From assembly GCA_963836205.1 (NCBI GenBank), contig CAWIIV010000006.1, positions 128,001 through 192,000 of the forward strand: a DNA stretch of 64,000 bases, read 5' to 3'. The DNA comes from an uncultured Acidimicrobiia bacterium. GTDB lineage: Bacteria; Actinomycetota; Acidimicrobiia; Acidimicrobiales; AC-14. Below are positions 46,581 to 52,619 of the stretch, in pieces. Every line of letters begins with the position of its first letter. Position 1 is the first letter of the stretch. A model generated the notes under the pieces. That model was not told where the DNA came from. It worked only from the letters and a program-made list of their open reading frames with translations, and made no database searches. Made by a program: the position numbers and the translations under genes.

Positions 46581-47700
46581 CGCTCGACTCCTTCTTGGGT
46601 CGCGGCAGGTGGCCGTGGTTGACGAGGGTCCCCAGGACGTCGCAGATCACCCGGGTCCCGAGGAGCGACGTGATCTCGGCGCTGTCGTACGGCGGCGAGC
46701 ACTCCACGATCTCGATCCCGGCCAGGCCCCGGGCCGCGACCCCCTTGACCAGCTTCAATGCCTCCCGGGGCAGGAAGCCGCCCGGCTCCGGCCAGCCCGT
46801 CCCGGGGACGAAGGCGGCGTCGAGGCAGTCGACGTCGAACGACAGCCACACCGCCTCGGCCCCGTCCCACGCCACCTCGAGGGCGTGCTCGATGGCGGCG
46901 TCGAGGCCCATGTCGACGCAGTCGTTGACGGTCATGATCGTCGTCTCCCGCTCCCGGCAGACCTTGACCCCGGGTCGGGGCGCCTGCCACCCGCCGATGC
47001 CTATCTGGACCAGGTTCTTGGCCGGGACGTTGGGGATGTCGGTGGCGTGGAACCAGGGGGTGGTGTGCATCCGTTCGTCGAGGTCGGTCTCCTGGGTGTC
47101 GACGTGGCGGTCGAAGTGGATGATCCCCAGGTTGCCGCCGCCCAGGTGAGGAGCCACCGCCCGCACCGTGGGGTAGCCGATGGAGTGGTCGCCGCCGAGC
47201 ACCACCGGGAAGGCCCCGCTGGCGTAGACGTGGGACACCGCCTTGGTGATCTGGTCGAACGACTTCTCGATGTTGCCGGGGATGGTGAAGATGTCGCCCA
47301 GGTCGCACATGGTGATCGACTCCCGCAGGTCGACCCCCAGCTCGAAGGAGTACGGGCCGTAGAGGGTGGAGATCGCCCGCATCCCGCGGGGGCCGAAGCG
47401 GGTGCCGGGCCGGTAGGTGGTGCCCGAGTCGTGGGGGGCGCCCACGACGGCCACGTCGTACCGGCCGCACGTGCGCACGTCCTCGACGTAGGGCGCCTTG
47501 AGGAACGTGGTGATGCCGGCGTAGTGGGGCAGCTCGCCCCGGCTGAAGGTGGGGATGGTCTTGTCGACGATGGAGTCGGCGCCCGGCAGGCCCATCTCCA
47601 GGCCCCGGGCGATCTCCCGGCGCCACCCGTCGAGGGGGATGAGGACCTCCGCCTCCAGCGCCCGCCTCGCTTCGGGCCCGTGCCGGTCGTGAACTGCCAC
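46573..47700 (-). CDS. gdmH: Ureohydrolase (arginase/agmatinase family), probable guanidine hydrolase
   Basis: IPTFSRGELPHYAG.TFLKAPY N-terminal extension as recalled for GdmH; GGDHS, DRHVD, SFDVD..D, PGTGWPEPGG; AGAGGAG RBS. Confidence 0.82.
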   Translation of the reverse strand: MAVHDRHGPEARRALEAEVLIPLDGWRREIARGLEMGLPGADSIVDKTIPTFSRGELPHYAGITTFLKAPYVEDVRTCGRYDVAVVGAPHDSGTTYRPGTRFGPRGMRAISTLYGPYSFELGVDLRESITMCDLGDIFTIPGNIEKSFDQITKAVSHVYASGAFPVVLGGDHSIGYPTVRAVAPHLGGGNLGIIHFDRHVDTQETDLDERMHTTPWFHATDIPNVPAKNLVQIGIGGWQAPRPGVKVCRERETTIMTVNDCVDMGLDAAIEHALEVAWDGAEAVWLSFDVDCLDAAFVPGTGWPEPGGFLPREALKLVKGVAARGLAGIEIVECSPPYDSAEITSLLGTRVICDVLGTLVNHGHLPRPKKESSDA

Positions 47701-47737
47701 CTGTCGGCTGCTCCTCTCTGGTGACCGACCCGGCGAA

Positions 47738-47779
47738 CGAGAAAGCCCGGGACGATCGATGTCGATCTCCCGGGCTTTT
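47738..47779 (-). terminator. Riboswitch expression-platform hairpin
   Basis: AAAGCCCGGGA...UCCCGGGCUUUCUC sequesters the 3' tail of the aptamer. Confidence 0.7.
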
Positions 47780-47860
47780 GTCCCTCCGTGTGACGAGTCG
47801 CAGCTCGCCTGCACCTCTCGGACCAGACCCCCCACGAGTGGGGGCGGAACCCTAGGTGCC
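47767..47860 (-). ncRNA. Guanidine-I (ykkC/yxkD) riboswitch
   Basis: CUAGGGUUCCG...CUGGUCCGAGAG...ACACGGAGGGACAAAAGCCCGGGAG matches the ykkC subtype-1 consensus. Confidence 0.93.
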
Positions 47861-47924
47861 GTGTGTTTTCAGTTGTGATGGGACGGTACGCACCCTTCGT
47901 TTCTGCCGTGTTTCCGACGAACGA

Positions 47925-47958
47925 CGAACTGGTGACACGGTCGCCGGACAACGTCACC
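47925..47958. repeat. Short REP-like palindrome copy
   Basis: CGAACTGGTGAC...GTCACC. Confidence 0.6.
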
Positions 47959-48010
47959 GCGGCGGAGCATCCGCGGTTGGCGGCGGGCGGCTACGTAGCG
48001 TTTGCGACGC

Positions 48011-48799
48011 GTGCGGCCCGTCCTCTTTCACGCCGGCTCCTACGGGGTGCCGACCCACGCCTTCTTCGTCGCCCTCGGGCTGCTGGCCGCGGGCATGGTG
48101 TTCGTGGTGGAGGCCCGGCGGCGGGGTCGGCTGGACGAGGCCATGGGGTGGATCGTGGCCGGCACCCTCCTCGGCGGCGCGATCGGCGCCCGCCTGAGCA
48201 CGCTGTGGGGCTACGTCGACGACGCCGCCGACCCGAGCCTCGTCGGCGCGGCCCTCGACGGCGGCAAGAGCATCCTGGGCGGGCTGTCCGGCGCCTATGT
48301 CGGAGCCCTCGTCACCAAGCGCATCCTGGGCTACCGCCGGTCCACCGGCGACCTGTTCGTGCCCGCGGTGGCCCTGGGCATGGCCGTGGGCCGGGTGGGC
48401 TGCTTCCTCACCGAGCAGGTCGGCACGCCCACGTCGATGCCGTGGGGCATCCACCTGAGCCCGGAGGCGGCGGCCCGCATCCCCCACTGCCCGTGGTGCG
48501 CGTCGGGCGTCGCCATGCACCCGTCGATGCTCTACGAGATCGCCTTCCACGCGGTCGCCTTCGTGGTGGTCCTCCGCCTCCGGGGCCGCCTGCGGACGGA
48601 AGGCGACGTGTTCAAGCTCTACCTGCTCGGCTACGCCCTCTTCCGCTTCTGGGTCGAGTTCGTGCGGGGCGGCGACCAGGTGCTGGCCGGTCTCACCCGG
48701 CCCCAGCTCTTCCTCGTCCCGTCAGGCCTGGTGCTGGCCGCCTACTTCGCCCGCCGGGTGACGCGGCCGGCCCCGGTGTCCGTGGCGGCGGACCGATGA
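48011..48799 (+). CDS. Lgt-family (prolipoprotein diacylglyceryl transferase-like) membrane protein
   Basis: GGKSILGG, GRVGCFL, HPSMLYE, RFWVEFVR. Confidence 0.85.
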   Translation: MRPVLFHAGSYGVPTHAFFVALGLLAAGMVFVVEARRRGRLDEAMGWIVAGTLLGGAIGARLSTLWGYVDDAADPSLVGAALDGGKSILGGLSGAYVGALVTKRILGYRRSTGDLFVPAVALGMAVGRVGCFLTEQVGTPTSMPWGIHLSPEAAARIPHCPWCASGVAMHPSMLYEIAFHAVAFVVVLRLRGRLRTEGDVFKLYLLGYALFRFWVEFVRGGDQVLAGLTRPQLFLVPSGLVLAAYFARRVTRPAPVSVAADR

Positions 48800-48854
48800 G
48801 CCCCGATTGATGAGCCCCGATTGATGAGCCCCGATTGATGAGCCCCGATTGATG
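48796..48854 (+). repeat. 4x 14-bp tandem repeat ATGAGCCCCGATTG, each a mini-ORF MSPD*
   Basis: ATGs at 48796, 48810, 48824, 48838 and 48852; each TGA overlaps the next ATG. Confidence 0.95.
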
Positions 48855-49079
48855 GACACCGTCCTGGCCGTCCTCCTTCTCGTCGGCCTGGCCCTCCTCC
48901 TGGCGTCGGCGGGCGGCGTGGCGCTGGCCAGCATCGTGAGGGCCCGTCACCGGAACCTGCCTCCCGACGAGGTGCAGCGCAAGGCGGCGGCCGCCTTCTG
49001 GATCGGGTCGATCGTGGGACTTGCCCTGGAGCTGGTCCTGTTCGGGATGTGTGTCTCGATGTTGAACCAGATGGGTTAG
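48852..49079 (+). CDS. Small 2-TM protein with C-terminal ELVLFGMC motif
   Basis: 75 aa, coupled to the last mini-ORF; paralogue of the next ORF. Confidence 0.7.
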   Translation: MDTVLAVLLLVGLALLLASAGGVALASIVRARHRNLPPDEVQRKAAAAFWIGSIVGLALELVLFGMCVSMLNQMG

Positions 49080-49082
49080 CGG

Positions 49083-49286
49083 ATGGACATCGTCAACGCC
49101 ATCCTCGGGCTGACCCTGCTCTTCGCGGCGCCGGCCACGATCATCGGCGGCATCGCCGCCATCATCGCCCTCGCGTCCGGCCACCGGGCCGTGCGGGCCT
49201 TCTGGATTGCCTTCGTCATCGTCGTCGCCATCGAGCTCATCCTCTTCGGGATCTGTCTCGCCGCCTTCCGGGACTTCGGCGGCTGA
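49083..49286 (+). CDS. Small 2-TM protein with C-terminal ELILFGIC motif
   Basis: 67 aa; TGATG overlap with the radical SAM gene. Confidence 0.72.
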   Translation: MDIVNAILGLTLLFAAPATIIGGIAAIIALASGHRAVRAFWIAFVIVVAIELILFGICLAAFRDFGG

Positions 49287-50884
49287 TGCGGGGCATGCCC
49301 CTGCGGGGTGACCGCATCCTGCGCTACGTCACCGCCTTCTGCCCCACCTGCCACGCGGAACGACCCGACCGACCCCTCGCCGAGGTGGCCCGCCTCGGCG
49401 GCTACCTCTCGGAGGCCGACGGGCGGGTGTGGCTGGTCCGGGGCTGCCCGACCCACGGGCGCATCGTCACCCTCTACGACGAGTCGCCCGAGATCCTGGC
49501 CTACCTCGAGCAGTGGACGGCGCCCACCAAGGCCCACCGCCCCGACACCCCGGGCAACTTCGACCCCATCCCGTCCGCCTACCTCCGGGGTCTCGGCGAG
49601 CTCCAGACCCAGCACACGTGCACCCTGCTGGAGGACATCGCCGAGAAGTGCAACCTGCGCTGCCCCACCTGCTTCACCGACTCCGGGCCCGAGCGGGCCG
49701 GTCTCGTACCCATCCACGACGTGGTGGCGAACGTCGACCAGCGCCTGGCCCGGGAGAACGGCGCCCTCGACGTGGTCATGGTGAGCGGCGGCGAGCCCAC
49801 AGTCCACCCGGACCTGGTCGAGATCCTCGACCGCATCCTCGAGCGGGACGTCACCCGGATCCTGGTCAACACCAACGGCATGCGCCTGGCCCACGACGAC
49901 GCGCTGCTGGCCGCCCTGGCCGAGCGCCGCGACCGGGTCGAGGTCTACCTCCAGTTCGACGGGTTCCGGGCCGCCACCCACCGCCATCACCGGGGAGCCG
50001 ACGTGGGAGCCGTCAAGCGGAAGGTGGTCGAGCGGCTGCGCGACGCCGAGATCTTCATGACCCTCACCATGACCGCCGCCCTGGGCGTCAACGACGACGA
50101 GATCGGCGACGTGGTCAACTTCGGCCTCGACACCCCCTACGTGGGCGGGGTCAGCATCCAGCCCCAGTTCGGGTCGGGCCGGTCGGGCGCCATCGACCCC
50201 CTCGACCGCCTCACCCACACCGGCGTGCTGGCGCGCCTCGGCCCTCAGACCGGCGGCCGCTTCGGCTGGCGGGACATGACCGCCCTGCCCTGCTCCCACC
50301 CCCATTGCTGCAGCATCGGCTACGCCATCCGCACCGACGCCGGCGAGTGGAAGTCGCTGGTGGGCATGATCGGCCACGAGGAGCTCAAGGCGAACCTCGA
50401 CCTGGTCAGCAACCGGATCGCCGACCGGGAGCTGCCCGCCCGCCTGCGCCGACTGCTGAAGGACTCGCTCCTGGGCCTACTCAGCGACCAGGCGTCGCTC
50501 ACCCATCCGAGCGTGCCCCAGCTGCTCCGCAACGTGTGCGACCACTGCGACCTGGGCGTGCGCACGCTCGCCCGCATCACCACCCGCCCCGGGGCCGAAG
50601 GCCGCCGCCGCATCCGGGACCTGCTGGCCCACCGGGTGAAGCGCATCGTGGTGAAGCCGTTCATGGACCTCGACACCATGATCGAGGAGCGGCTCCAGCA
50701 GTGCTGCGTGCACGTCGGGTCCCGGGGCGCCGACCACAACGGCGACGGTGGCGGCCACCAGTGCGCCCCCTTCTGCGCCATGCAGGCGTGGCCCGCCCTG
50801 GGCGCCACCCGCCTATCGGCGACGGCGACCGCCGAGTCCGCTGCCGCCGAGGACCAGCCGGTCACGCTCGGCCGCCGTGGCTGA
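49286..50884 (+). CDS. Radical SAM enzyme, tetraether synthase (Tes/GDGT-MAS/MJ0619)-like family
   Basis: N-terminal CPTC...CPTHG, CNLRCPTCF, GGEPT, VYLQFDG, PCSHPHC, CCVH...PFC. Confidence 0.85.
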   Translation: MRGMPLRGDRILRYVTAFCPTCHAERPDRPLAEVARLGGYLSEADGRVWLVRGCPTHGRIVTLYDESPEILAYLEQWTAPTKAHRPDTPGNFDPIPSAYLRGLGELQTQHTCTLLEDIAEKCNLRCPTCFTDSGPERAGLVPIHDVVANVDQRLARENGALDVVMVSGGEPTVHPDLVEILDRILERDVTRILVNTNGMRLAHDDALLAALAERRDRVEVYLQFDGFRAATHRHHRGADVGAVKRKVVERLRDAEIFMTLTMTAALGVNDDEIGDVVNFGLDTPYVGGVSIQPQFGSGRSGAIDPLDRLTHTGVLARLGPQTGGRFGWRDMTALPCSHPHCCSIGYAIRTDAGEWKSLVGMIGHEELKANLDLVSNRIADRELPARLRRLLKDSLLGLLSDQASLTHPSVPQLLRNVCDHCDLGVRTLARITTRPGAEGRRRIRDLLAHRVKRIVVKPFMDLDTMIEERLQQCCVHVGSRGADHNGDGGGHQCAPFCAMQAWPALGATRLSATATAESAAAEDQPVTLGRRG

Positions 50885-51164
50885 CCCCCGCATCCCGGCC
50901 GCCCTCCGGGGAGCGTCGGAGCCTTCGGAGTCGCCGTCCGACCCGCTCCACTGGTGCGTGTTCACCACCGTCAGCCTGCTGACGTGGGCCCTGGGCCCGG
51001 CCGTGCTCGTCGTCTTCTCGACGGCCGGTCTGGTGGCCTACTCACGATCCTTCGCCCGTGGCCGGCGCCGCAGCCGCTGCCTGCTGCGCGACACCCGCCT
51101 GGTGGTGGCCTACCTGGCCGTCACCCTCGCCTTGGGCGTCGTCGCCACCGTCCGCGGCCTGTAA
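50877..51164 (+). CDS. Small membrane hypothetical protein
   Basis: GTG overlaps the rSAM end; DPLHWCVFTTV...SRCLLRDTRLV with about 3 hydrophobic segments. Confidence 0.65.
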   Translation: MADPRIPAALRGASEPSESPSDPLHWCVFTTVSLLTWALGPAVLVVFSTAGLVAYSRSFARGRRRSRCLLRDTRLVVAYLAVTLALGVVATVRGL

Positions 51165-51257
51165 CCCGTCCCCCGGGACGGCCCCGAAGCCGTCAGCTAC
51201 GGGCCACGGAGATGCAAGAGAAGCGACAGGTAATGGTCATGGGGCCTACATGCTCGC

Positions 51258-51273
51258 TTCACGGACGGGCAAT
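51258..51273 (+). promoter_or_regulatory. Possible GlnR-type box upstream of urtA
   Basis: TTCAC-N6-GCAAT loosely fits gTnAc-N6-GaAAc; context is a nitrogen-scavenging operon. Confidence 0.3.
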
Positions 51274-51326
51274 GGCGCCTCCCTATGGTTCGGCGGAAAT
51301 TGATCCGTCGAGCACTGAGGGGGCTC

Positions 51327-52619
51327 ATGGGAATGCGCAGACGATCGGCGCGAAGCCGATCGATGTCGAGAAGTCTGGTCGCGGTCGCAGCGGCGGCGGG
51401 GTTGGTCCTGGCCGCCTGCGGCAGCGACGACGACACTGCAGGCACTGCGACGGGGCCGGAGACGGTCAAGGTCGGGATCCTGCACTCGCTGAGCGGGACG
51501 ATGTCGATCAGTGAGGTCGCCGTCCGGGACGCGTCGCTGCTGGCGATCAAGGAGATCAACGCCGCCGGGGGCGTGATGGGCAAGGAGATCGATCCGGTCG
51601 TGCGGGACGGGAAGTCGGACTGGCCCACGTTCGCCCAGGAGTTGGAGTCGCTCATCACCACCGAGAAGGTGGCGGTGACGTTCGGCGGGTGGACGTCGGC
51701 CAGCCGCAAGGCCATGAAGCCGGTGGTCGAGGGCCTCGACGGGCTGCTGTTCTACCCGGTCCAGTACGAGGGCCTGGAGGTGTCGCCCAACATCTTCTAC
51801 ACCGGCGCCACCACCAACCAGCAGATCATCCCCGCCCTCGACTACCTGAAGGAGAAGGGCCTCACCCGGCTGTTCCTGGTCGGCTCGAACTACGTCTTCC
51901 CCCAAACGGCCAACAAGGAGATCAAGGCCTACGCCGCCGCCAACGGCATGGAGATCCTCGGCGAGGAGTACCTGGAGCTGGGTGAGAAGAACGCCCAGAC
52001 CGTGGTTCAGAAGGTGCTCGACGCCAACCCCCAGGTCGTGTTCAACACCCTCAACGGGGACACCAACGTGAGCTTCTTCCAGGAGCTGAAGGCCAAGGGC
52101 AACACCCCCGACAAGATCCAGACCATCTCGGTGTCGATCGCGGAGGAGGAGACCAGGGGCGTCGGCATCCCCAACCTGGTCGGCCACCTGGTGGCCTGGA
52201 ACTACTACCAGACCACCGACCTGCCCCGGAACACGGCGTTCGTGGCGGCCTACAAGGCCGAATACGGGCCCAACCGCAACACCGACGACCCCATTGAGGC
52301 CGGCTACAACTCGGTCTACATCTGGAAGGCAGCGGTGGAGAAGGCCCAGTCCTTCGACGTCGAGGCCGTTACTGCCGCCGCCGGGGGCCTGGTGCTGGAC
52401 ACGCCCGAGGGCCTCCTCACCGTCCACCCGACCAACCACCACGTGGCCAAGACGGCACGGATCGGCGTGATCAACGACCAGGGGCTCATCGACGAGGTGT
52501 GGACCTCGGGCAAGCCCATCGAGCCCGATCCCTGCCTCGACACCTACCCCTGGGCGGCGGCCGCGGGACTGGCCACCCCCGAGGCACGCGCCGAGTGCGA
52601 CGCGGCCAAGGCCAGCTAG
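51327..52619 (+). CDS. urtA: Urea ABC transporter substrate-binding lipoprotein
   Basis: VGILHSLSGTMSISE, FGGWTSASRK, YPVQYEG, NTLNGD, WNYYQ; lipobox LAAC. Start may be 51363. Confidence 0.94.
   Translation: MGMRRRSARSRSMSRSLVAVAAAAGLVLAACGSDDDTAGTATGPETVKVGILHSLSGTMSISEVAVRDASLLAIKEINAAGGVMGKEIDPVVRDGKSDWPTFAQELESLITTEKVAVTFGGWTSASRKAMKPVVEGLDGLLFYPVQYEGLEVSPNIFYTGATTNQQIIPALDYLKEKGLTRLFLVGSNYVFPQTANKEIKAYAAANGMEILGEEYLELGEKNAQTVVQKVLDANPQVVFNTLNGDTNVSFFQELKAKGNTPDKIQTISVSIAEEETRGVGIPNLVGHLVAWNYYQTTDLPRNTAFVAAYKAEYGPNRNTDDPIEAGYNSVYIWKAAVEKAQSFDVEAVTAAAGGLVLDTPEGLLTVHPTNHHVAKTARIGVINDQGLIDEVWTSGKPIEPDPCLDTYPWAAAAGLATPEARAECDAAKAS

Follow-up and report, generated by a model that had tools for sequence, protein, structure and literature searches.

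We describe a five-gene operon in a 64,000-nucleotide (nt) stretch of DNA from an uncultured Acidimicrobiia bacterium (contig CAWIIV010000006.1; hereafter, the window). The operon encodes a divergent paralog of the diacylglyceryl transferase Lgt, which we call LgtL, two small cysteine-bearing membrane proteins (PepA and PepB), a Tes-like enzyme of the radical S-adenosylmethionine (SAM) type (here, rSAM), and a further small membrane protein (Orf5). LgtL, the small Cys-bearing membrane proteins, and the Tes-like rSAM act as one unit, and this module probably makes an undescribed lipid-protein modification. We present the evidence that the genes belong together, the features of each protein that bear on its role, and the alternatives that we weighed.

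Conserved pairing of LgtL with the radical SAM enzyme

We assembled 81 loci, comprising the window and the best 80 of 271 rSAM relatives in species-representative genomes. LgtL lay 5' of the rSAM gene on the same strand in 75 of the 81, spread over the Actinomycetota, Acidobacteriota, and Gemmatimonadota. Two further loci had other arrangements of LgtL (one divergent and one downstream), and in the four loci without an LgtL match, the rSAM gene starts 132 to 370 nt from the end of the contig. In a reverse set built from the best 80 of 230 relatives of the M. houstonense LgtL, the rSAM gene followed 3' in 79 of these mycobacterial loci, and the single miss was at a contig edge. This arrangement is far beyond chance.

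When the open reading frames (ORFs) of the 81 loci were clustered, the only widely shared clusters were rSAM (81), LgtL (73), and orf5 (49). The remaining large clusters were antisense shadows of these three genes or reflected local mycobacterial synteny, and the clustering contained no peptidase or exporter conserved with the module.

Two proteins, P0195 (671 amino acids [aa]) and P0227 (733 aa), are single chains in which an LGT domain is followed first by a zinc ribbon and then by a Radical_SAM domain. Both have the GR[LV]GC version of the Lgt signature described below for LgtL, and P0227 also has the His. The fusions were found only among the more distant rSAM representatives. The best 120 rSAM matches of similar length were all 502 to 555 aa with no LGT domain, and no fusion was found at 1e-20 among proteins of 932 to 2,660 aa, a length range that cannot hold a fusion of ~800 aa. 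The seventh transmembrane helix of Escherichia coli Lgt is reported to begin on the periplasmic side (Mao 2016, PMC4728403, in the portion available), and a fused rSAM would therefore be cytoplasmic, directly under the transferase.

LgtL, a divergent Lgt paralog

LgtL scored 123.7 bits against the Pfam LGT model (PF01790; cut-off, 24.9), showing that the LGT domain is present, and it fell under all NCBIfam lgt cut-offs (TIGR00544 and the NF0007xx models; the best score was 87.8 versus 118.9, and the others were far lower). The AlphaFold2 (AF2) model of LgtL (predicted local distance difference test [pLDDT], 84) has seven long helices. Its sole fold match in the Protein Data Bank (PDB) at an E value of ≤0.001 by Foldseek was E. 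coli Lgt, 5AZB (E value, 1.6e-8; template modeling [TM] score, 0.62 to 0.66).

In a HMMER alignment to 5AZB, LgtL retains R131, Y211, R215, E219, and R222, equivalent to R143, Y235, R239, E243, and R246 of E. coli Lgt, as well as the D129 equivalent; the five numbered LgtL residues were invariant across 34 sequences. The motifs HPS.LYE, FR...EF.R, and GGL are also retained. Three positions are substituted, with H19 in place of Y26, L92 in place of H103, and C134 in place of N146, and DGGKSILGG aligns with DGGMSFHGG and GRVGCF with GRLGNF. Among the 34 relatives, H19 and C134 were invariant and L92 was nearly so (at least 90%), and each was present in at least 95% of a set of 75. In E. coli Lgt, according to the available portion of the structural study, the hydroxyl group of Y26 forms a bond to the sn-2 ester oxygen of the phosphatidylglycerol bound there, N146 is one of the residues in the central cavity's hydrogen-bond network, the lipobox is proposed to dock at H103GGL, and the bottom of the cavity is fully hydrophobic (Mao 2016, PMC4728403). 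Judged by its sequence, LgtL has kept the Lgt scaffold and the headgroup-binding arginines and has changed at precisely the donor- and acceptor-contact positions.

The genome that carries the operon has three LGT matches, of which LgtL scores lowest. One of the others is a canonical Lgt with WHGGLG and GRWGNYFNQELFG, and LgtL is therefore an extra copy. The third Lgt family paralog (L082:1396-2418, contig C22) is unlike both; it shows GRIGDLIIGDHLG where the signature motif would stand and WKGGISLLGG where HGGL would, and it lies just 3' of a 408-aa ORF with a GKGGVGKS P-loop.

One could suppose that LgtL is merely a redundant, weak housekeeping Lgt whose position beside rSAM is functionally meaningless. 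There is a precedent for this thinking, since the Mycobacterium smegmatis second Lgt homolog, MSMEG_5408, which carries the Y26H and N146C changes, is treated as possibly redundant with the main Lgt in the accessible portion of a preprint (10.1101/2025.01.07.631728). However, the pairing extends across phyla, fused LGT-rSAM proteins exist, the three substitutions fall at functional positions and are invariant or nearly so, and the genome already encodes a canonical Lgt. We consider redundancy very improbable, and it is already disfavored.

A radical SAM enzyme of the Tes/TrsS superfamily

The rSAM protein exceeded the Pfam cut-offs for Radical_SAM (76.6 bits) and Zn_ribbon_HMPTM (PF23545; 38.2 bits versus 27). 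Its best-scoring named model was NCBIfam TrsS (NF045646; 195.2 bits over residues 38 to 358), which it failed at a cut-off of 490. The closest PDB match by sequence was GDGT-MAS (7TOL; E value, 5e-26). The AF2 model (pLDDT, 67; predicted TM score, 0.75; poor at residues 103 to 138 and 372 to 425) matched 7TOL and 7TOM by Foldseek with an E value of 1e-23 and TM scores of 0.60 to 0.65 over ~555 columns. This was the only full-length fold match; the next, SkfB (E value, 1e-5), covered the core barrel only.

An exhaustive search of 1.84 billion cluster representatives returned 264 rSAM relatives at an E value of ≤1e-30. Among 57 full-length relatives, none reached the Tes cut-off (best, 361 bits) and one (P0225) passed TrsS, and the genome has no second Tes-like gene besides rSAM. 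By these sequence comparisons, rSAM is a member of a large bacterial branch of the Tes/TrsS superfamily and not Tes itself. Two relatives, P0224 and P0214, have C-terminal extensions that are low in complexity or seemingly frameshifted and are uninformative.

The Cys and His motifs of rSAM are C19xxC22, C54xxH57, C122x3C126x2C129, C336-SHPH-C341-C342, C473-C474-x-H476, and P495-F-C497. Thirteen Cys residues and the His of CxxH and CCxH were invariant among 30 relatives; C342 was absent from the invariant list. The invariant C336, C341, C418, C421, C473, C474, C493, and C497 are candidate ligands of the two auxiliary [4Fe-4S] clusters, and of these HMMER aligned CCxH alone to GDGT-MAS, in a stretch below significance.

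A radical SAM enzyme beside small precursor-like genes in one to three copies also brings to mind the ribosomally synthesized and posttranslationally modified peptides (RiPPs). In a RiPP-like lipopeptide route, rSAM would modify the peptide (for example, by a thioether or C-C link near the Cys), LgtL would lipidate it, and a peptidase would free the C-terminal tail. The weaker matches to the rSAM core fold do include the peptide maturases SkfB, ChlB, and SuiB. However, these matches are restricted to the common radical SAM core (TM scores, 0.26 to 0.32), with no SPASM/twitch match beyond it, and the SPASM-type models (AlbA, MftC, PqqE, ScmE, and similar) match approximately residues 110 to 285 only, far below their cut-offs. 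The absence of a peptidase or exporter conserved with the module also argues against this route, which we regard as improbable; two further points that bear on it are given with the peptides below.

Proteins with a cysteine helix at the C terminus

The second helix of PepA ends in F-G-M-C, followed by an 8-residue tail, and that of PepB ends in F-G-I-C58, followed by a 9-residue tail. PepA, PepB, and seven peptides from five related loci share an invariant M1, F40, A49, E51, G56, and C58 (PepB numbering). Recognizable homologs of PepA and PepB were limited to five close relatives, and within the genome only pepA and pepB matched the family. Neither protein had a Pfam or NCBIfam family above the cut-off or an Atlas family.

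Other lineages have dissimilar membrane proteins between LgtL and rSAM, from 67 to more than 200 residues long, encoded by one to three genes per locus. Toward the N terminus they are proline rich or helical, and they share a common ending that consists of a positive stretch, a hydrophobic helix, G-x-C, and a tail of 4 to 15 residues. The 17 G-x-C, Orf5, and neighboring proteins of other lineages that we tested matched no known family above the cut-off. Among the 62 loci whose LgtL-rSAM gap is at least 150 nt, 54 contain a hydrophobic ORF whose final 30 residues include [GA]xC, and in the remaining 8 the hydrophobic ORF lacks [GA]xC in that stretch. In at least seven of these eight, G-x-C lies further inward, ahead of one additional hydrophobic stretch, and G-T-A-C is present in the eighth (L005). 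Of all 70 hydrophobic gap ORFs, 59 had G.C near the end, versus 4.9 expected from shuffling the last 70 residues, and 48 had exactly one Cys in those 70 residues. The small ORFs, which the sequence-only reading had expected to travel with the pair, do so as a class defined by the G-x-C helix and not as sequence homologs.

We compared 60 of these Cys-tail proteins. Gly stands at position -2 from the Cys in 59 of them, and Thr stands at +1 in 27. The 19 residues preceding the Cys are hydrophobic (mean Kyte-Doolittle value, 2.1), the 15 residues before the helix have a net positive charge in 59 of 60 (mean, +2.2), and the tail after the Cys has a median length of 10 residues, with a net charge of ≤0 in 52 of 60. 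By the positive-inside rule, the Cys helix should therefore run from the cytoplasm to the outside and have its Cys at the outer end. Charge and hydropathy thus suggest the layout of a lipoprotein signal peptide, placed at the C terminus of the protein and with a shifted lipobox. Complex prediction of LgtL with PepB gave values of 0.35, 0.04, and 0.02 (mark, 0.32) without controls, and we count it neither for nor against binding.

The residues after the Cys are conserved within lineages, as in the C-T-G-[VIL]-N-P-x-[LM]-Y of the Mycobacteriaceae and Streptosporangiaceae, which would suit the RiPP-like route. Against that route is the bulky residue at -1 in the Cys-tail proteins; a bulky residue at this position of a lipobox is ill suited to signal peptidase II.

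In 4 of the 13 loci that have no gene between LgtL and rSAM, a Cys-tail protein is encoded just 5' of LgtL. The gapless loci of the Gemmatimonadaceae have a conserved convergent ORF 3' of orf5 (Table 1), which encodes a soluble domain and a C-terminal helix ending in A-C. Their last residues are L-A-C or A-A-C with a short tail (three of the five loci show the latter), and they have no Pfam family. The convergent ORF could encode the acceptor in that lineage. The acidobacterial G-x-C proteins open with a common cytoplasmic segment of ~45 residues (…YLREHxxRYSLxxLRxQLLxxGYDPxxVDxAI…) that has no Pfam match, and this segment is duplicated within one protein in loci L059 and L049.

Operon structure and Orf5

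The five genes lie on one strand and are translationally coupled by overlaps or short gaps (Table 1). Only 3 nt separate pepA from pepB, a single base is common to the stop codon of pepB and the start codon of rSAM (TGATG), and orf5 begins inside the end of rSAM, with an overlap of 8 nt. We detected neither a sigma-70-like promoter nor an intrinsic terminator within positions 47600 to 51500. The G+C content of the window is ~70 to 72%. At third codon positions, it is 0.91 to 0.96 in all five frames (pepA, 0.91; pepB, 0.96; orf5, 0.92), versus 0.42 to 0.74 in the other frames, and this contrast makes the small ORFs look coding.

Table 1. Positions of the operon features in the window and of related ORFs in other loci (L numbers)
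Feature	Position	Strand	Description
LgtL	48002-48799	+	265 aa; divergent Lgt paralog, 7 predicted transmembrane helices
Perfect 14-nt tandem repeat, GATGAGCCCCGATT x 4.3	48795-48854	+	From LgtL stop codon to pepA start codon
pepA	48852 (ATG, likelier) or 48849 (TTG) to 49079	+	75 or 76 aa; peptide with two transmembrane segments
pepB	49083-49286	+	67 aa; peptide with two transmembrane segments, pepA paralog
rSAM	49286-50884	+	532 aa, no transmembrane segment; Tes/TrsS superfamily radical SAM enzyme
orf5	50877-51164 (GTG start)	+	95-aa membrane protein, two invariant Cys
Gemmatimonadaceae convergent ORFs	L041:6805-7200, L069:6793-7188, L035:2640-3035, L040:4011-4316, L062:6886-7386	-	
Acidobacterial ~45-residue segment, among other Acidobacteriota loci	L008:1204-1686, L022:3519-3965, L063:4523-4990		

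The 14-nt repeat (Tandem Repeats Finder; 100% matches, score of 120) is all that lies between LgtL and pepA; in the related locus L004, the peptide gene starts ~3 nt past the LgtL match. The repeat looks as though the stop/start junction had expanded recently, and it might change translational coupling. At 50827 to 50877, in the variable C-terminal tail of rSAM and just before the orf5 start, there is also an imperfect direct repeat of 26 nt (1.9 copies, 81% matches).

The ORF list gave orf5 as 50748 to 51164. We took the in-frame GTG at 50877 as the start because the resulting N terminus, M-ADPRIP, matches homologs that start MTDPIP or MSDPIP. The orf5 cluster contains 49 ORFs in 49 of the 81 loci. 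The proteins have a hydrophilic N terminus, a D-P-[LI]-x-x-C motif (DPLxxC in the window protein) that opens a long hydrophobic stretch, a positive loop with S-[RK]-C-x-L-[RK]-D-x-R-L-V (S-R-C-L-L-R-D in the window protein), and a second helix, and the Cys in both motifs is invariant. Orf5 belongs to no Pfam or NCBIfam family, and its nearest Atlas clusters are unnamed proteins of 87 to 105 aa.

The tightly coupled five-gene operon of the earlier description is borne out by these coordinates, and its anatomy is real and conserved. The Lgt motifs named there (GR, HP..LYE, RF..EF.R, GGKSILGG, and GC for GN) are present in the HMMER alignment to 5AZB, and so are the Cys and His motifs it listed for rSAM, all but C342 being invariant in the 30 family members. 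That description did not point out that Orf5 is conserved and has two Cys, that Y26 is replaced by His, or that the Cys helix has a topology like that of a signal peptide.

Distribution of the module

The best 80 rSAM relatives are 62 to 92% identical to the window protein, and the nearest are metagenome-assembled genomes of Acidimicrobiia. The groups represented are Acidimicrobiia, Mycobacteriaceae, Nocardia, Streptosporangiaceae, Nanopelagicales, Gemmatimonadaceae, Thermoanaerobaculia, Blastocatellia, and others, and cultured carriers of the module include Mycolicibacterium, Nonomuraea, Nocardia, and Longivirga. In a FastTree phylogeny of 80 rSAM sequences, 19 of which are from Acidobacteriota, the sequences grouped by phylum, with 7 label changes (minimum, 5; mean after shuffling, 28.9). 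We considered horizontal transfer as the cause of the 62 to 68% identity across phyla and do not claim it, as the tree groups by phylum; strong constraint with patchy retention fits this grouping better than transfer does. Two modules on contigs labeled uncultured Clostridia (L009 and L020) nest in the Blastocatellia (Acidobacteriota) with local support of 99 to 100, and their G-x-C proteins are nearly identical in layout to that of the Blastocatellia locus L008. This placement suggests mis-binning or recent transfer.

The distribution bears on another alternative, a lipid-only pathway in which LgtL and rSAM would make a modified membrane lipid, such as a macrocyclic or membrane-spanning glycerolipid, and the G-x-C proteins would be carriers or scaffolds. 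GDGT-MAS, the closest characterized relative of rSAM, acts on free membrane lipids, and the accessory proteins vary so widely in sequence, length, and copy number that the Cys helix alone seems important. The module also occurs in the Acidobacteriota, most of which make iso-diabolic acid and in which no mss gene and few Tes homologs were found, as stated in the available portions of the sources (Sahonero-Canavesi 2022, PMC13159169). The loci without an intervening gene would be explained as well. However, the module is also common in the Mycobacteriaceae, Streptosporangiaceae, and Gemmatimonadaceae, and we know of no membrane-spanning lipids from these families. At an E value of ≤1e-80, a sample of 401 genomes of the phylum contained rSAM in only 7, counting the one that carries the operon, and in none of the same-order genomes listed; this frequency is low for a bulk-lipid pathway. 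In addition, a stoichiometric, translationally coupled peptide is no less compatible with a substrate than with a carrier. We therefore regard the lipid-only pathway as unlikely, although less so than the RiPP-like route.

Proposed mechanism

We tentatively favor a scheme, which we hold to be plausible but somewhat short of probable, in which LgtL lipidates the G-x-C cysteine and rSAM, docked beneath it, alters the lipid tails. PepA and PepB would insert like signal peptides, with the last helix running from the cytoplasm to the outside and the G-x-C Cys at its outer end. LgtL would then transfer a diacylglyceryl-type group to this Cys. The altered acceptor site (HGGL to LGGL) might accommodate a lipobox in which Gly occupies -2 and a bulky residue -1, and Y26H and N146C may change the choice of donor or the way it is held. 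From the observed fusions, we infer that rSAM could dock on the cytoplasmic face under the cytoplasmic C terminus of LgtL, where it might reach the ends of hydrocarbon tails hanging down the hydrophobic cavity of LgtL. It could modify these tails with radical chemistry like that of GDGT-MAS on archaeol, coupling unactivated carbons through C-C (or C-S) bonds, either before or after transfer to the protein. Orf5 may be an accessory membrane subunit, perhaps an anchor or thiol relay for rSAM. Such a pathway would yield a small membrane protein with a macrocyclic or cross-linked lipid near its C terminus.

A fuller version of this scheme, which is possible but doubtful, is that a dedicated protein is S-lipidated at a C-terminal "reverse lipobox" (h-G-x-C) and that rSAM couples the lipid tails with one another or with a lipid from the other leaflet, so that the protein is stitched to a macrocyclic or membrane-spanning lipid. 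What weight is left after this reading and its rivals belongs to explanations that we have not yet conceived.

Several observations weigh against the proposed mechanism. The H103A, -N, -Q, -R, and -Y forms of E. coli Lgt are reported to be inactive (Mao 2016, PMC4728403), and low Lgt activity is presumed for the Y26H/N146C homolog (preprint 10.1101/2025.03.27.645668), both as given in the available portions; thus, LgtL may not transfer diacylglyceryl at all. At -1, 43 of the 60 Cys-tail proteins have L, V, F, or I (L, 12; V, 12; F, 12; I, 7) and only 7 have A or G, which is not a canonical lipobox. The 13 loci of 81 without an intervening gene include ~9 that show no clear G-x-C protein nearby. 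The active site of Lgt faces the outer leaflet and rSAM is cytoplasmic, so its access to the tails is an assumption. Residues 372 to 425 of the rSAM model have pLDDT values below 50. The rSAM score against the NCBIfam Tes model (NF045702) was 146.3 bits (142.2 in the search of the genome itself), which fails the cut-off of 450. On this last point, the sequence-only reading had placed rSAM in the Tes family; this agrees with the full-length fold match, which is solely to GDGT-MAS, but not with the Tes score, which is lower than that for TrsS. Finally, orf5 was not found in 16 of 17 Mycobacteriaceae loci, and the match in the 17th was a weak one of 38 aa inside the rSAM gene. Orf5 is missing from mycobacteria and is therefore not essential to the core reaction.

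If the proposed mechanism is correct, it would give a function to a large bacterial branch of Tes/TrsS, represented by the relatives found in the exhaustive search, and would explain the N146C Lgt paralogs that Lgt specialists have remarked on (preprint 10.1101/2025.03.27.645668, in its available part). The linkage between protein and lipid would also be a new one, and radical tail coupling would for the first time be directed at a protein. The module has a bearing on how aerobic Acidobacteria make membrane-spanning lipids, a question described as still unresolved in the accessible part of PMC13159169. At only 3.2 kb and present in cultured bacteria, it is directly testable.

Comparison with known systems

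LgtL resembles E. coli Lgt (5AZB/5AZC) in its seven-transmembrane fold, catalytic residues, HPS.YE, and GGL. It differs in that its clade carries Y26H, H103L, and N146C and is linked or fused to a radical SAM enzyme, and the motif presumed to be its acceptor lies at the C terminus and has Gly at -2 and a bulky -1 residue. MSMEG_5408 is likewise reported to have Y26H and N146C (preprint 10.1101/2025.03.27.645668), and the available portion of that preprint mentions no partner enzyme. M. smegmatis was not among the relatives listed in two scans with mycobacterial LgtL queries (the best 80 of 230 and 80 of 97), and MSMEG_5408 is at most a candidate member of the module.

The Cys-tail proteins are like lipoprotein signal peptides in their positive n-region, helix of ~19 residues, small residue, and invariant Cys at the outer end. 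Unlike in the lipobox [LVI][ASTVI][GAS]C, the motif is C-terminal, with 4 to 15 residues after the Cys, and the Gly is at -2 rather than -1; moreover, no cleavage enzyme is linked to the LgtL-rSAM module.

With Tes/GDGT-MAS (Methanocaldococcus jannaschii MJ0619; 7TOL/7TOM), rSAM shares the N-terminal zinc ribbon/rubredoxin-like domain, the CX3CX2C core, and a Cys-rich C-terminal domain that includes CCxH, in addition to the full-length fold. However, rSAM is only ~20% identical to it, is bacterial, and is paired with an Lgt paralog. TrsS, the best named model yet scored far below its cut-off, appears in the available part of a review (PMC13188914) only as an entry in a table of selenoproteins. 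Mss of Thermotoga and Thermoanaerobacter is a radical SAM enzyme that couples fatty acid tails in bacteria, and its authors found no Tes homolog in these organisms, by the available portions of their papers (PMC13159169, PMC13459092). It is a functional analog of what rSAM may do, but the absence of Tes homologs there makes it a separate enzyme, and the available portions mention no link to Lgt.

Zeng 2022 reported 456 bacterial Tes homologs and suggested a role in making branched glycerol dialkyl glycerol tetraethers; the accessible part of that paper mentions no genomic context. Our literature searches, in which some candidates were judged by the title or the start of the abstract, returned no publication that joins an Lgt paralog with a Tes-like enzyme, and a full-text term search found neither "Lgt" nor "diacylglyceryl" in Sahonero-Canavesi 2022 or in a 2026 review of lipid-modifying radical SAM enzymes. 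The parts of the module belong to known superfamilies, and the system as a whole matches no described one; its novelty lies in the system and its presumed product rather than in the parts.

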